A stretch of DNA of 64,000 bases. Origin: Mobula hypostoma. Its lineage: Eukaryota. A program made the translations under genes and the position numbers. The stretch is taken from contig NC_086097.1 of the NCBI RefSeq assembly GCF_963921235.1, positions 146,260,001-146,324,000 on the forward strand. Direction: 5' to 3'. Positions 3,407 to 64,000 of the stretch are shown here, piece after piece. The notes under the pieces were generated by a model. That model saw only the letters and a program-made list of their open reading frames with translations, ran no database searches and had not been told where the DNA came from. Every line of letters begins with the position of its first letter. The first letter of the stretch is position 1.

Positions 3407-4755
3407 GAATCAGAATCAGGCTTAATATCACCGGTATTTGTCGTGAAATTTCTTAACTTAGCAGCGGTAGTACAATGCAATGCATGATAATATAGGGAAA
3501 ATATGTAAATCAATTACAGTAAGTATACTGTACAAATGCATATTAAATAGTTAAATTTAAAATAGTGCAAAAACAGAAATAATAGAAGTGAAGTAGTGTT
3601 TATGGATTCAGTGGCCATTTAGGAATTGGATGACAGAGGGGAAGCAGCTGTTCCTAAGTTGCTGAGTGTGTGCCTTCAGGCTTCTGTACCTCCTTCCTGA
3701 TGGTAACAGTGACAAGAGGGCATGTCCTTACTGATGAGGGCCCTTAATGATGGACACCGCCTTTCTGAGGCACCGCACTTTGAAAATATCTTGGATACTA
3801 CAGAGGCCAGTACCCATGATGGAGCTGGCTAATTTTACAACTTTCTGTAGCTTCTTTCAATCCTGTGCAGTAGCCCCCCACCACCACATCAGAGAATAAT
3901 GCAGCCTGTCAGAAGTCTGTGGAAGTTGAGTGTTTAGGTAACAAACCAAATCTTTTCAAGTTCCTAATGAGATATAGCCATTGTCTGCCTTCTTTATAGC
4001 TGCATCGATACGTTGGGAACAGGTTGGATCCTCAGAGATCTTGATACCCAGAAACTTGAGGTTACTCACTCTGTCCACTTCTGATTTCTCTGAGGATTGG
4101 TTCATGTTCACTCATCTTACCCTTCCTGAAGTCCACAGTCAGCTCTCTGGTCTTACTGACGTTGAGTGCCAGGTTGTTGCTATGACATCACTCAACTAAC
4201 TGGTATATCTCACTCCTGTACGTCCTCTAGTCTCCATCTGAGATTCTTCCAACAATGGTTGTATCATCAGCAAATTTATAGATAGCATTTGAGCTATGCT
4301 AAGTCACAAAGTCATGGGTATAGGGTCAAGCAGAGCAGTGGGCTAAGCACACATCCCTGAGGTATGCCAGAGTTGATCATTAGTGAGGAGGTGATATTAT
4401 TACCAATCCGCACAGATTGTGGTCTTCCAGTTAGGAAGTCGAGGATCCAATTGCAGAGGGAGGTATAGCGGCCCAGGTTCTGTAGCTTATCGATCAGGAC
4501 TGTAGGAATGATGGTGTTAAAATGCTGTGCTTTAGTCAACGAACAGCATCCTGACATAGGTGTTTTAATTGTCCAGGTGATCTAATCTAAAGAAGTGTGA
4601 AGAGCTTTTGAGATTGCGTCTGCCGTAAACCTATTATGGCAAACTGCAACGGGTCCTGCTGAGGCAGGAGTTGATTCTGGTCATGAACAACCTCTCAGAG
4701 AATTTCATCCCCATAGATGTGAGTGCTACTGGACAACAGTCATTAAGGCAGCTTA
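3407..4755 (-). mobile_element. REX1/Babar-type LINE, 5'-truncated
   Basis: RT remnant [30 protein letters not shown]...[10 protein letters not shown] (ORF 4312-4557); short tandem 3' tail (GATTCT)n at ~3407-3420. Confidence 0.8.
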
Positions 4756-5287: not shown

Positions 5288-5597
5288 ACGAGGAATTCTG
5301 CAGATGCTGGAATTTCAAGCAACACACATCAAAGTTGTTGGTGAATGCAGCAGGCCAGGCAGCATCTCTAGGAAGAGGTACAGTCAACGTTTCGGGCCGA
5401 GACCCTTCGTCAGGACTAACTGAAGGAAGAGTTAGTAAGAGATTTGAAAGTGGGAGGGGGAGGAGGAGATCCAAAATGATAGGAGAAGACAGGAGGGGGA
5501 AGGATGGAGCCAAGAGTTGTAGGGTGATTGGCAAAAGGGATATGAGAGGATCATGGGACAGGAGGCCCAGGGAGAAGGAAAAAGAGGGGGGGGGAAC
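5288..5597 (-). mobile_element. Penelope-like element terminal repeat (pLTR) fragment
   Basis: Reverse complement of the 7560-7810 copy; contains a hammerhead motif; same family as the GIY-YIG-bearing copy at 47900. Confidence 0.8.
5382..5417 (-). ncRNA. Minimal type I hammerhead ribozyme motif (intact core)
   Basis: AGUC-CUGACGA-aGGGucucggCCC-GAAA-C-GUU-GACU: stem I AGUC/GACU, CUGANGA and GAAA boxes, stem II, NUH triplet. Confidence 0.75.
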
Positions 5598-7354: not shown

Positions 7355-7812
7355 CAGACTGGGAGATCATTTCGCTGAACACCTACGCTCTGTCCGCCAT
7401 TGACTTCTCAAACCTCCGCTAATGCCCCATCTCCCCCTCGTACCCCATCCGTTATTTATTTATATACACACATTCTTTTTCTTTCTCTCCTTTTTCTCCC
7501 TCTGTCCTTCTCACTGTACCCCTTGATCATCCTCTGGGCTTTTTCTCCCCCTCCCCATTTTCTTTCTCCCTAGGCTTCCTGTCCCATGATCCTCTCATAT
7601 CCCTTTTGCCAATTAACTATACAGCTCTTGGCTCCATCCCTCCCCCTCCTGTCTTCTCCTATCATTTTGGATCTCCCCTTCCCCTCCCACTTTCAAATCT
7701 CTTACTAGCTCTTCTTTCAGTTAGTCCTGATGAAGGGTCTCGGCCCTAAACGTCGACTGTACCTCTTCCAATAGATGCTGCCTGGCCTGCTGCGTTCATC
7801 AGCAACTTTTAT
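7355..7812 (+). mobile_element. Penelope-like element 3' fragment with pLTR
   Basis: RLGDHFAEHLRSV-type GIY-YIG tail remnant, pyrimidine-rich tract, hammerhead motif at 7723-7758 with GAAA>TAAA. Confidence 0.8.
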
Positions 7813-9905: not shown

Positions 9906-10060
9906 CAAAAACGACTGTGTTCGTCATTATGCCAGACACTGAAGTACCAAGAACAAACTGCAAAACAATGAATAAGCTGATGTTTGGTACAAATGCTGCT
10001 CCTACTCCTGTGATAAGCTGAAGAAGCAGTGAGACTAAAATACTTCTTTGTCGACCAAAC
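9906..10060 (-). pseudogene. SLC22A13: SLC22A13-like exon 3 (155 nt)
   Basis: TATAG|G acceptor, (R)FGRQRSILVSLLLQLITGVGAAFVPNISLFIVLQFVLGTSVSGIMTNTVVF, donor G|GTAGG. Confidence 0.9.
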
Positions 10061-10909
10061 CTATAAGAGAAATGGCAACAAGTCATTGAGTGCAAATTGA
10101 AAATGCTGGAGTTACTCACCTGCAGAGAGTGAAATGGTGTTAGTATTTCAGGTCAATGACCCTCCATCAGAGCTCATTCTGTTCTGGGACATTGATTCTG
10201 ATCCTCTATCTATAAATACATCGACACTGAGAATCACCCTGCATTTTGGCTCTAATTTCAGGTTTCCTGTAGCATAACGATTTTCTAAGTATTGAATGTG
10301 TTGTCCATTGGCTGACATCTCAAGAGGTTTCACCTCTCAAGGAGCATAGTAGATTGCAGTAACTTCCTCAAAAAACATTTGGGCTGAATTCTAGTATCAA
10401 ATTCAACCAAGCTGCTCGATTATCGGGTGGGAGTTACTAGTGACAGTGATGGTAAACAGAATGCTTGGGATTCGTAACGGGAGAACAGTAGTGTTAATAA
10501 ACTCAGTCAGGTCCTAGTTGGTTGGAATGGAATGATTAAAAACATATCCTGGTCACTAATCACAAAGATTAAGCGGGAGAATTAGATTTAAGACAGGACA
10601 CTGATAAGTGTTTTGTTAGTCTACCTAAGAGTAGTTCTTTTAAAGTTAAATAAATAATTCTGCAAAGTTTTTAATAAAGTGCTTAAACATGTAGATTAGG
10701 ATACTCTCAAATTTTAGTTATGGCTTGTCCTTTACTATTTGGGGCAACAGTAAGGATGAAATTATTTTACCCTCTAACTTTTTGGGTTGAATTTGAATAA
10801 ATTTCATCTCAATAGAGTAGTCTGAAAATAGAAGGATAATTATATAATCTTAATTTCTTGTCAGATTAAGATGCTAAAAACTACAGCCACTGAGAAAGTC
10901 AGTGGAAAT

Positions 10910-12940
10910 GACTGATATTGGTTTATTATGGACAAGCATACAGTGAAAAACTCATCTTGTTCATACAGATCAAATAGTTACCCTGTGCATTAAGGTAGAG
11001 CAAGGTAAAACAATGACAATGCAGAATAAAGTGTAAAAATGACAGAGAAAGTGCACTGCAGGTAAACAATGAAGTGCAAGATCATAACAAGGAAGACTAT
11101 AAGGTTAAGAGTCCATCATATTGTACTAGACAACCATTTGTGTCTTGGAACAGCAGGGTAGAAGCTGTCCTTGAACTTGGCATTGTATGCTTTCATCTTC
11201 TTCTGACCAATGGAAGAGAATAAGAGGTAATGTCCAGAGTGATTGTGGTCTTTGATTATGTTGGCTTTATTACTAAGGCATCATTTTGATACTCAATTGC
11301 CCTTTCTGAAAGCATTCGTAGTATGAAAATTGCGTTCCTTGTTCCTCTATCCTCAATAAATACATATTGCAGTTTAGAAGTTTCTGACCTTAACTTGTTT
11401 ATAATTCGACTCAGAACAATTCTCAACAAAATCTTTATTATGTGACTCATAAGATTGGTTGTTCTATAATTTTTGCAGTCAATAGTTCCAGGAATTTTTG
11501 GCAGAGTTATAAATACTGATTTCAAGAGATCATCAGGCAATACACCAGACTCATATATGCCATTAAACAGTTCAAAAAGAATATCTATGCCCAGGTCTTC
11601 TAGGGTTTGTATCATTTCCACTGAAATTCCATCAGGTCCAGTGGCTTTACCATGTTTCATGCTTTTCATTGCTTTAGTTATTTCCTCTCTGGTAATAGGT
11701 GGGCCAGAATTAGGGTCTTTAATATCTGGGGGATCCCCTTTTATCTCCAAAAAGCTGCTCTATATACTGAATCCACCTTTCACATACTTTATCTGGGTCC
11801 GTTAGTATGGATCCGTCTGCTGATCTTATGTATCCTGTAGAGGAGGTTTTCTTAATTCCAGTAACTTCCTTAATTTTCTTGTGATTTTCAACAATTGCTT
11901 CAAAATTTATATTGGAATCAAATGGCAGTGGTAAAAATTGATGATAATATAAGCAGTTGGACTAAAGTTCAAAGAGAAGTTAGACAGGGATGTGTTGCCT
12001 CACCGGAATTATTTAATATCTATGGTGAAATGATTCTCAGGGAAATAGAAGACCTAGATGGGATAAAAATTGGAGGTGTTAACATCAACAATATAAGATA
12101 TGCAGACGATACCACCCTAATAGCAAGTGCTGCAGAAGACCTACAAATCCTCCTAGACAAAGTAGTACAAACAAGTGCAGATTTTGGTCTAACCATCAAC
12201 TGCAAAAAAAAAACAAATGTATGGTAATGTCAAAACCGCAGGATACTTCCAACTGCCAATTGTACATCGGTAACCAAGAGATTGAACAAAAGACCAGCTT
12301 TAATTACCTTGGAAGCTTTATATCATAAGATGCTAGAAGTAAAGTAGAAATAAAAAGAAGAATTGCCATTGCTAAAACCAAGTTCCAAAAAATGAAACCC
12401 GTTTTTACCAACAGACACATTTTATGACAACAAGGCTTAGGCTACTAAAATGTTACATCTAGTCAATCTTGCTGTATGCATCCAAAACATGGACCATAAC
12501 ACCAGAACTCCAAAGAAACTTAGAAGCAACAGAAATGTGGTTTCTTAGAAGAATGCTGAAAATATCATATAGAGATAGGGTAACTAATGAGACAGTACTC
12601 CAACATGCCCATATGAAAAGATCTTTAATGAGAACATTAAATGAGAGGAAACTTAAATTCCTGGGCCATGTCATCAGAAAGGCAGAAATAGAATGCCTTA
12701 CATTACAAGGCAGTATGCCAGGGAAACATGGTAGAGGAAGGCAAAGAAGAAAATATATGGACACTGAAAAAACTAACAGATTTAAGTGTGCGAGATGCTG
12801 CGAGGGATTGTTCGATGTGGAGTGCCATGATCGCCCAAGTGTGCAATGCGCAAGGCACATGAAGAGAGAGGGATTACTGAGGCAGGGAGAAGTATAGAAC
12901 TGAGAGGGGAGTCTACCCTCTGTGATTTGCTGTGCTTCAA
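10910..12940 (-). mobile_element. Old REX1/L2-like 3' fragment, split by the RTE insertion
   Basis: Similar to the repeat at 52440-52730; host sequence resumes across the RTE at the duplicated ATTACT(A/G)AGGCA. Confidence 0.6.
11281..12872 (+). mobile_element. RTE-clade LINE, 5'-truncated with inverted 5' segment (11281-~11892 minus, ~11893-12872 plus), 12-bp TSD
   Basis: Minus ORF GKATGPDGI...RGTRNAIFILRMLSERAIE; plus ORF LQNLYWNQ...RQGCVASPELFNIY...NIRYADDT; LYASKTW...EMWFLRRML; GA-rich tail; TSD 11269-11280 / 12873-12884. Confidence 0.92.
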
Positions 12941-52268: not shown

Positions 52269-53879
52269 TTCTCTACCCTCTGAGTGCTCCAGTTTTCTTC
52301 TACAATCCAAAGACGTACCGACTAATAGGCTGGTTGGTCAACGTAAATTGTCCTGTAATTAGGCAAGAGTTAAATCAGGGATTGCTGGATGGCATGGCTT
52401 GAAGGGCCGATTCCACACTTTCTCAATAATAAGAAAAATTAAAAAGCAGTGCATGAGGTAGTACAAAATAATAAAGGAGAGCAGAATAAAAAGAGTTGTA
52501 AAAAATGCAGCACAGCAAAATAATAAGACGCAAGATCAAAATAAGGTAGATTGTAAGGTCAAGAGTCCATATTATTCTACTAGGGAACAATTTAATAGTC
52601 TCATAACAGCATGATAGAACTTGTCCTTGAGCCTGGTGATAAGTGTTTTCAGGCTTTTGAGATTTTGCCTGACAGGGTGGGTGGGGAGAAGAGAGAATGT
52701 CTGGTGTAAGCAGGGTCTTTGACTATGAAAGTAGGGGAATATGATAGCAATCTTTACTAACCTAGTGCTACTCCACACTAAAATTCTAAGTAACCTCTAG
52801 CCCTTCACTACATTAGGAAGCCCGAAAAATATTTTAAGCCAACTCTTCCCTCCTAGTCCTCTTATCCTCATCACCTACAAATACATACCTGAGCAGAAGG
52901 CAACCACTTGGCATATATTCTGTCATTTAATATTATGGTTGATCCCATGGTAACCCCAACTTTGCAAGTCTATAAATTTAAGGTAACTTTTCATCCATTG
53001 CACATCAAATATGTCTTCCCTTAAAAATGTTCACTGAAGCTCAACAACTTTTATATTCAATTGCCCAGCAACACATGATAATTTAAAAAACCATTCTGTT
53101 AGCCTTAATTACTTGCAATCTCTTTACACCAGCCATCTGTGAATCATATACTAGGACATACCCATCTCAAAGTTTAGTATCTCTCATTATTTAGGTAATG
53201 TCTTTAAATTGGTACTCGACAAAGTGGACAATTTTACATTTTTTTTTTAAAACAGGATACTTCACTTGCCAGATCTTTGCACACTTACTTCAGTTACTGA
53301 TAACCCTTTATAGCATCAGCTTCAGTTACTTTCCCAACCATTTGTGTGTAATCAAAATTTGGCAATAATACTTACTCAAACTGTAAAAAGTTGATATCTG
53401 AGCACCAGTCCATATAGCACACCACTGCATACAGACATCCAACTTGCAAAAAGACTCATTTATATCTAATAGCTATAATTCATCCAATGTCTCCCCTTTA
53501 TCCTTAACATATGTTACCTGTTCAAAGAATTTCAATAATTTGGTTCCATAAATAACCTAATTTTCTTCCCCCCCCCCCCCCAAATTAGCTTCCACATTCC
53601 CTTCATTAAGAATTTCAGAACAGCTTCTGACATTTTCCACATGATAAACATTATGCTTCTTGGTCTGTTGGTTATGTTTTCTGCATCTTATAATTTTGAA
53701 GAAAGTTATATTTGTTAATTTTCAACTTAATGGAGGGTTCCCAAAATAAAATAATTTTTGGAAAATTAAAACCAATGTTTCAATTATCTCATTGATCACT
53801 TCTTTTAAGTCTCAAGGATAAAAACATCAGGAATCTGAAATTTGCAACAGGTCCACCAATTTACTCAATAACACTGTAA

Positions 53880-58149: not shown

Positions 58150-59345
58150 AAAAGTGAAGTTGAGAGTACAGAACTTAATGTGCCTGTAAGAATAAAAGGT
58201 AAAGGTAACTTAGGTTTTAAAGGGATTTTGAAGTCCTGGCTAAGAAAAAATGAGATGCATAGCAAGTTTAACTAGTGAGAAACAAACAAGGTACTCGAAG
58301 AGTACAGGAGATCGGGAGGGCTAAAAGGCGGCATGAGGTTGCCCTAGCAACCAATCCTAAAGGATTCTACAGGTATGTTAAGAGTAAAAGGATTGCAAGG
58401 GACAAAATTGATCCTCTGGAAGATCAGAATGGTAACCTATGCATAGAGCTTAAAGAGATGGGGAAGATCTTTAATGGATTTTTTGCATATGCATTCACTC
58501 AGGGGAATGGAGATAGTCTATAGAAGGGAGGCAAAGCAGAAGTGAGGGCATGGGCCCTACAGAGATTACAGGAGGAGGTGGTGCTTGCTATCTTGAGGCA
58601 AGATAGGGAGGATAAATCCCCAGGGCCTGACGAGGTGTTCTCTTGGACCCCGTGGGAGGAATATGCAGAAATTGCAGGGGCTCCGAGCAGAGATATTTGA
58701 ATGATCCTTAGTGACAGGTGAGGTACTGGAAGAATGGATAAAAGCTACTGTTGTTGCACTGTTTAAGAAGGGCTATAAAAATAAATCAGGAGATTATAGG
58801 TGAGTGAGCCTGGCATCAGTAGTGGGAAAGTTATTAGAAGGTATTCTAAGGGACTGATACATGAGTATTTGGATAGATATGGATTAATTAGGGATAGTCA
58901 GCATGGGTCTGTGCACTGCAGTTTGTGTCCAAGCAATCTTATGGAGTTTTTTGAGGAAGTTACCAGGAAAATCGATGAAGGCAAGGTAGTGGATGTTATC
59001 TACAAGGACTTTGCAAGGCATTTCACAAGGTGCCATATGAGAGGTTGGTCAAGCAGGTTCAGTTGCTTGACCTTCAAGATGAGGTGGTAAATTGGATTAG
59101 ACATTGGCTTTATGGAAGAAGCCAGAGAGTGGTAGCACATGGTGCCTCTCTGACTGGAGACTTGTGACTAGTTGAGTGCCGCAGGGATCAGTGCAAATGC
59201 TAGCAGGCTTTTTCCAGAGGTCATGGGTTAAGGGTGAAAGGTGAAAAGGTTAAGGGGAACATGAGGGGAAACTTCTTCACTTAGAGGGTTGTGAGAGTGT
59301 GGAATGAGCAGCCAGTGCAAGTGGTGCATGTAAGCTCAATTTCAA
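58150..59345 (+). mobile_element. CR1 LINE fragment with internal deletion near 59195
   Basis: NPKGFYRYVKSKR, SNLMEFFEEVT..IDEGKVVDV, VPQGSV, then jump to 3' end. Confidence 0.82.
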
Positions 59346-59387
59346 TGTTTACGTATTCTTTTTTGTCTCCTGAATTAAAAAACCTAC

Positions 59388-62906: not shown

Positions 62907-64000
62907 CATTATGGCTGACTGTATCAAAGGCTTTATCAGGTCAATGCATGGTGTGTATAGTCCCATGTTCTGACCACGACACCTCTCCTGTACCTGGCGC
63001 AAGAAAAAGATCATGCTAGATGTGCCTCTGTTCACTCTGAAACCGCACTGACTTTGAGGTTGCCTTTGGCAATGGTAGGGATGATTCTATCCAAGAGAAT
63101 ACTGGTGAGGTCTTTCTGGTGGTGGACAGCAGGGTCCTCTGGTGTTTGAAAAATCCGATTTCTCCCTGTTGTTCTTGATTATCACTGGAAGATTCTATTG
63201 AAGCTTGGCTGTCCCTGAAATTCCTCACCATCCTGCAGCAGTTCCATTAAGGCCAAAGTGGTCAGGTTAAACACAACGGCGATCTGTCTGACCCATTCCC
63301 CATCAGAACCAGCATGACTGTGTTTGGGCGCCAACGCTCTTTGTCATCTTTTTCAGCATGATGCTATGAGAAGCGAAAGAGATCACCTCCAGGAGTATCT
63401 ACATCCTTTCTGCACTGACAAAGATATCTTCAACCTCTGCCACCTTCTTGCCCAAACAAAAACCATGTAAGAGCCTATTCTCGAGCTATTTTATGCAGAC
63501 GACTGTGCTGTTCTCACACACACACTTGACGTGCTATAGGCTGTAGTCACTTAGCTCACCAAGGCTGTAAGGGCATTCAGGTTAACTGTCAGTCTGGACA
63601 AAAACAATAATCCTCCATCAGAAGCCCCGTCGTGGCATTTATTACCCACCTTGGACCACCACTGACGACCACCTTCTCACCACGGTTGAGCAGTTCACCT
63701 ACCTGGGAAGCATCATCTCTAACGACACTATGATAGTAAGGTAAGTTGACAATCGACTCGCTGGAGCCATCAATACTTTTGGGCGCCTCCAGAAACGTGT
63801 ATGGAAGAACCATCAGCTGTGTCTGTCCCCAAAAATCCAGGTGTACAGGGCTGCAGTCGTTACAACATTGCCGTATGGCTCCGAAGCCTGGGATTTGCAC
63901 AAGAACACCTGGTTGCTTGAGTGCTTCCATCAGTGCTGCCTCTGCTCCACCATGAGTATCAGCTGACAGGATCATGTCTCCAATAGCGGAGGTCCCGGAG
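62907..64000 (+). mobile_element. RTE (BovB-like) LINE with inverted 5' segment (62907-~63185 minus, ~63186 onward plus); 3' end beyond window
   Basis: Minus: SQCGFRVNRGT..MIFFLRQVQERC...IDL.KAFDTVSH; plus: WKILLKLGCP.KFLTILQQFH...APTLF.IFFSMML...LFYADDC...VEQFTYLGS (with frameshifts). Confidence 0.85.

Follow-up and report, generated by a model that had tools for sequence, protein, structure and literature searches.

A single, well-formed, 5'-inverted copy of an RTE-type LINE lies at positions 11281-12872, between 12-bp direct repeats, in the 64-kb window (the whole stretch of DNA that was analysed), and the observation made in the original prediction is confirmed. The element is ~1.6 kb long, is nested in an older repeat and has its front ~609 bp reversed, with ~100 bases missing at the flip. 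Twin priming during one retrotransposition of an RTE-clade LINE is the best explanation and probably the correct one, because one step accounts for the two pieces, ~980 nt forward and 609 nt inverted, as well as for the ~100-nt loss. For the present locus the twin-priming reading of the original prediction was upheld by one duplication, an inverted end adjoining it, a short gap, a normal 3' end, one family for both pieces and a probably empty orthologue. For its wider claim, that twin priming is a property of the RTE machinery in this lineage, the present locus supplies one copy.

Four of 23 sequencing runs (X1, X5, X20 and X10) were compared with the window, small-share rows being left out. 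In the unique flanks these runs differ from the window by 0%, 1.3%, 4.8% and 9.2%, respectively, and X1 is possibly the assembly's own sample. The insertion starts with the 5' copy of the target-site duplication (11269..11280, plus strand), which bears the single mismatch between the two copies. It is followed by the inverted piece of the RTE ORF (11281..11889, minus strand), which comprises the pre-RT region and the start of the RT domain and was delimited by tblastn of 38 homologues, its inner end being placed to within ~2 nt from other copies. The element-3' end of this piece adjoins the duplication, and the piece contains one frameshift near 11740 as well as in-frame stops. The forward piece (11890..12862, plus strand) begins with the second half of the RT domain, which includes the YADD region, and in the homologue alignment reaches the stop codon at 12860-12862; it has frameshifts near 12206 and 12422. 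A short (AG)n-type tail of 10 nt without poly(A) (12863..12872, plus strand) is found in the sequence immediately 3' of the stop codon, and the 3' copy of the duplication (12873..12884, plus strand) completes the insertion; the match of an X10 contig starts exactly at 12873. The element's 3' end is normal and intact, with forward orientation, stop codon, tail and duplication. A structured RNA 3' end gave no signal in folding (z = +0.67). Given the three frameshifts and several stops, the copy is dead.

The two 12-mers lie at the boundaries given in the original prediction (11269-11280 and 12873-12884) and are identical at 11 of 12 positions; the duplication is not perfect. They are the sole matches at one mismatch or fewer on both strands of the whole window, and the chance of such a pair was roughly estimated as 5e-6 for a fixed pair and 6e-4 with 5 nt of slack per end. 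No extension of the duplication beyond 12 bp was observed on either side. The single duplication encloses both pieces of the element, and no second copy of the RTE family was found within the window.

The insertion interrupts an older high-copy repeat, which we take to be a Rex/Babar-like LINE. Its left part (10890..11268, minus strand) is the 3' end of another LINE and was recognized by high depth and by paralogues at 3615-3772 and 52449-52727; its right part (12885..12930, minus strand) contains a decayed reading frame and was delimited by depth and contigs, the right end being approximate. When the run contigs were placed on the window, depth was high from ~10890 to 11280 and again up to ~12930. 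The left flank aligns to the paralogue at 3615-3772 with a score of 56 (shuffled maximum 30), and gap-free extension of this paralogue shows one motif copy at 3761-3772, in register with the 5' copy of the duplication. At the DNA level, the right flank gave no alignment to the in-window paralogue above the shuffles (score 22; null maximum 31). Translated from the minus strand, the decayed frame of the host repeat encodes the same four residues at each of the two motif copies and reads on across one of them. Because paralogues of the host repeat have the motif once, the duplication is genuine. In X1 and X5, contigs link 11266 and 11263, respectively, to 12877 via only 5 and 8 letters; these joins are one letter short of a perfect empty site, have no second motif copy and probably represent paralogues of the host repeat. 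The empty-site check proposed in the original prediction was answered in part: the paralogues with one motif and the X10 match starting at 12873 agree with it, whereas the orthologous joint in X10 is deduced from the start of a contig.

When the 38 RT homologues were compared with the window using tblastn, minus-strand homology was found from 11883/11889 down to 11280 (~609 bp), in agreement with the ~610 bp first described as inverted, and plus-strand homology was found from 11892. Between the outer inverted end and the forward start, the gap is exactly 34 residues in 33 of the homologues, and the remaining five are without one of the two gap flanks. This spacing bears out the claim that the outer inverted end is the region just upstream of the forward start. 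The element sequence absent between the pieces, 34 codons or ~100 nt, carries the C-x-I-D-Y-x-K-A-F-D motif of the homologues, so the reported loss of the DxxKAFD block was also correct.

The forward piece is matched by family members from elsewhere, starting at 11889 in X20 and at 11891 in X10, and agreement with the window resumes at 11886-11889 in an X20 loose end that lies at 11883; together these place the inner junction at 11889-11891. With the inverted piece extending to ~11889 and the forward piece starting at 11889-11891, as judged from single other copies, the junction would have a microhomology of 0-1 shared bases. The original prediction had put the junction at ~11892 on the palindrome CAATTG, and this had to be revised, as CAATTG (11892-11897) belongs to the forward piece, close to its inner edge. 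There are 21 six-base palindromes in the element, and CAATTG is uninformative because 15% of the element positions are at most 3 nt from one of them; a palindrome as the cause of the inversion was rejected on these two grounds. Fold-back of the first cDNA was rejected as well, since no inverted duplication was found inside the element, which excludes it.

The two ends flanking the lost block are alike when read in the element sense (11283-11299 and 11892-11906), with 12 matched bases and two gaps, and both start with CAATTG. This similarity was spotted post hoc, and 425 of 20,000 random 30-nt pairs score equally high. At the 5' end, the last base of the duplication fits a conserved Asp codon, which permits a microhomology of at least 1 nt and is no proof of it. 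No sequence of the same family spanning the 5' junction was obtained from protein searches (best matches 59% and 62% identity) or from 17 metagenome loci (~64-73% DNA identity over longer matches), and an exact 22-mer search gave 0 matches in viral and prokaryote genome contigs. The 17 metagenome loci, mostly fragments, have no inversion relative to P0018.

The assignment to the RTE clade is well supported and rests on architecture rather than on a formal tree. Close homologues of the element have endonuclease and RT domains. Four near-complete metagenome relatives (L001-L004, 52-54% identity to P0018) each have a single stop-to-stop frame of 1016-1104 codons, and short repeats follow closely on its stop codon; the single-ORF architecture is seen in these relatives since the copy itself is without its 5' part. 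One homologue is labelled 'Craniofacial development protein 2', a label typical of RTE endonucleases. The 3' UTR is very short, consisting of the 10 nt of (AG)n after the stop codon, a microsatellite and not poly(A). In the RT tree, which has long branches and no named RTE references, the piece falls among relatives of 50-62% identity and far from the CR1-like RT of the window. RTE tail types are tabulated in the accessible portion of PMC6007223 (table 2). The 12-bp duplication is within the range given for RTE target-site duplications in passages of PMC6007223 and PMC4245944 (7-15 bp, with a peak at 10-12), and it begins with A after T-rich sequence, a pattern that the same passages describe for RTE. 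The element resembles the RTE-clade LINEs BovB and Expander in the EN+RT ORF of ~1000 aa (seen in the relatives), the stop codon beside a microsatellite tail and the 12-bp duplication. Unlike the present copy, BovB and Expander are not described with 5' inversions in the accessible portions of PMC6007223 and PMC3381678.

The data fit an origin of both pieces from one high-copy family, at the family and not the subfamily level. Both have the same amplification pattern across the four runs. Other copies differ from the window by 10.7-14.0% in the inverted piece vs 9.7-13.2% in the forward piece (18 selected, non-independent pieces), and the inverted piece is slightly more divergent in all three comparable runs. 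Clearly different divergence of the halves had been named as a point against a single insertion; the shared depth pattern and the similar divergence favour one insertion, and the slightly higher values of the inverted piece in three runs do not. Depth rises along the 5'-to-3' axis of the element, with rho values of 0.98 (X1), 0.89 (X10), 0.93 (X20) and 0.25 (X5). Within the inverted piece alone the gradient is clear only in X1 (0.89), the values in the other runs being -0.03, 0.43 and 0.37.

In X1, X5 and X20, the contigs of the right flank reach 32-44 nt into the tail of the element and end there, so the 3' junction is present in three organisms. In X10, the right-flank contig matches from exactly 12873 with 111 unaligned letters ahead of it, and this more distant organism probably has no insertion at the orthologous site. 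Summed depth of the element relative to the flank, which is not copy number, is ~900-2000x in X1, X5 and X20 and ~90-180x in X10; RTE depth relative to the flanks is thus roughly tenfold lower in X10. These values suggest a lineage-specific burst of the RTE family. From the 3' junction and the high depth in X1, X5 and X20 and not in X10, we infer that the family expanded and the insertion occurred once organism D had diverged (flanks ~9% different) but before organism G did (~5%). Contigs back the 3' junction and both unique flanks. Among the 32 pieces listed (a further 39,596 pieces exist), no contig bridges 11280 or 11890, and the inversion therefore rests on the assembly.

Under twin priming, the order of events would be as follows, with the timing and the annealing step taken from the L1 model and with a single RNA as the presumed template. 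The endonuclease would have made staggered cuts 12 nt apart in the older LINE remnant, as the duplication indicates. The bottom-strand end would have primed on the (AG)n tail and been extended by ~980 nt, of which the product is seen. Before this first cDNA was complete, the 12-nt top-strand overhang would have primed the same RNA internally, ~100 nt upstream of the end of the first cDNA. The second cDNA would then have been extended by ~609 nt toward the 5' end of the RNA, in accordance with the geometry seen. Finally, the two cDNAs would have been joined with at most ~1 shared base, with loss of the intervening ~100 nt and of all sequence 5' of the second cDNA. Such a copy would have been dead on arrival and would have decayed since.

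Four other explanations were weighed against twin priming. The source element might already have been inverted, so that the present copy is an ordinary 5'-truncated one and the gap is partly the truncation point. This main rival is unlikely, because the listed contigs near the junction (one of X10 and two of X20, including the loose end at 11883) stop matching there and continue otherwise, as unrearranged copies would, and because nothing would explain a truncation ~100 nt from the forward start except the copying of almost all of the inverted block. A normal 5'-truncated copy might instead have been inserted first, with later repair flipping its 5' part and deleting ~100 bp. Microhomology-mediated repair is known in general to yield small inversions with deletions, and the left-junction structure is unseen in the related organisms, which leaves room for an uninverted allele. 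A later inversion is nevertheless very unlikely, as its breakpoint must hit the edge of the duplication within 1-2 bases and leave the duplication whole, protein homology extends up to 11280 and no fitting inverted repeat was found.

Even less probable is that the inverted piece was copied from another RTE RNA at the same break, or represents a separate antisense insertion into the first copy. The slightly higher divergence of the inverted piece from other copies would agree with it, and twin priming on two different RNAs is known from snRNA-L1 chimeras (excerpts of PMC4476161), but the inverted piece has no tail or duplication of its own, and an independent template would fall within 100 nt of the end of the first cDNA in ~6% of cases (for a 3.3-kb element, a typical RTE length being assumed). 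An assembly artefact at the repeat is the least probable of the four, and we consider it very remote: the left and inner junctions are unbridged among the listed contigs, but a misjoin would hardly place the target duplication at the inverted end or produce a clean 34-codon gap, and the contig support for the 3' junction and both unique flanks also speaks against it.

Twin priming, the reading preferred here, reportedly goes back to Ostertag and Kazazian (2001), who are said to have proposed it as a model for 5'-inverted L1 insertions. According to passages of several sources, PMC2912911 among them, inversion affects 18-31% of the L1 insertions that arose recently in humans and chimpanzees. 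The present copy resembles twin-primed human and chimpanzee L1 as portrayed in such passages, in that the internally primed end adjoins the 5' duplication, a gap is found at the inversion, the 3' end is intact and the duplication falls within 10-20 bp. The lengths of the pieces are alike as well, with 609 and ~980 nt here vs median lengths of 751 and 571 nt for germline inverted L1 pieces in excerpts of PMC12016303. The same excerpts give 132 of 287 L1 inversions (only 46%) with both cDNA ends at most 20 bp apart, so that wider offsets, like the present one of ~100 nt, are common. The strongest L1 hallmark in the accessible part of PMC2912911 is 5' microhomology, which is reported for 577 of 605 inverted L1s and is absent in 28. 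The present copy differs from L1 in being of RTE type, with one ORF and microsatellite tails in the relatives, in having no poly(A) and in its non-mammalian host, which its repeats suggest to be a cartilaginous fish, probably a ray.

In the accessible sections of PMC4245944, a cell-culture comparison found inversions only with L1 in human cells, save one Nimb-2 insert. The conclusion drawn there was that 5' inversion is dependent on the type of LINE and on the host, and short (~5 nt) overhangs were proposed to be unable to prime the second reverse transcription. The Nimb-2_DR insert, from chicken DT40 cells, shares with the present copy a 5' inversion made by a non-L1 LINE and a duplication peak near 12 bp. 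It is, however, a single case of an I-group element in a culture assay, whereas the present copy is a germline RTE insertion common to related organisms. No description of 5' inversion of RTE elements was found in a full-text literature search, whose coverage stops short of the key papers of 2001 and 2008 (Ichiyanagi and Okada 2008), and term look-ups in the accessible text of PMC8090852, PMC10018349, PMC3381678, PMC1291365, PMC5389967, PMC11371274 and PMC8232201 yielded nothing on non-L1 LINEs with 5' inversions. The absence of RTE inversion from print is not established by this. Most likely, the present copy extends a known mechanism to a clade for which no report was found. As a control within the window, ~13 CR1-like clusters were inspected, and none has abutting opposite-strand pieces; these are old copies on a coarse map.

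Whether twin priming is routine for RTE-clade LINEs in this genome, with a frequency close to that of mammalian L1, although they lack poly(A) and probably an ORF1 protein, we regard as evenly balanced. If they do, 5' inversion would depend on a target overhang of ~10 nt or more and not on specifics of L1 or of mammalian cells, and the mechanism would work without a poly(A) tail and probably without an ORF1 protein. A genome that harbours both RTE, with duplications of 10-12 bp, and CR1/L2, with duplications of 3-5 bp, would be a natural test of this overhang rule, which predicts that inversions are common in RTE and rare in clades with short duplications; one locus is an example only. The element itself is a single dead copy with no sign of function.

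Several other features were observed in the window. On the minus strand, an exon-like stretch at 9916-10071, presumably SLC22-like, has a weak match to MFS_1 (E 2.7e-4, below the Pfam cut-off), and the RTE insertion may lie inside an intron of the gene to which this stretch belongs. A pair of SINE-like repeats (5328-5593 and 7547-7812) is arranged in inverted orientation ~2 kb apart, with 90.6% identity. The RT match of a CR1-like copy at 58639-59350 skips to the 3' end, which suggests an internal deletion. Another RT fragment, at 63685-63984 on the plus strand, is ~32% identical to P0018 and P0034 and belongs to a family other than that of the inverted RTE.
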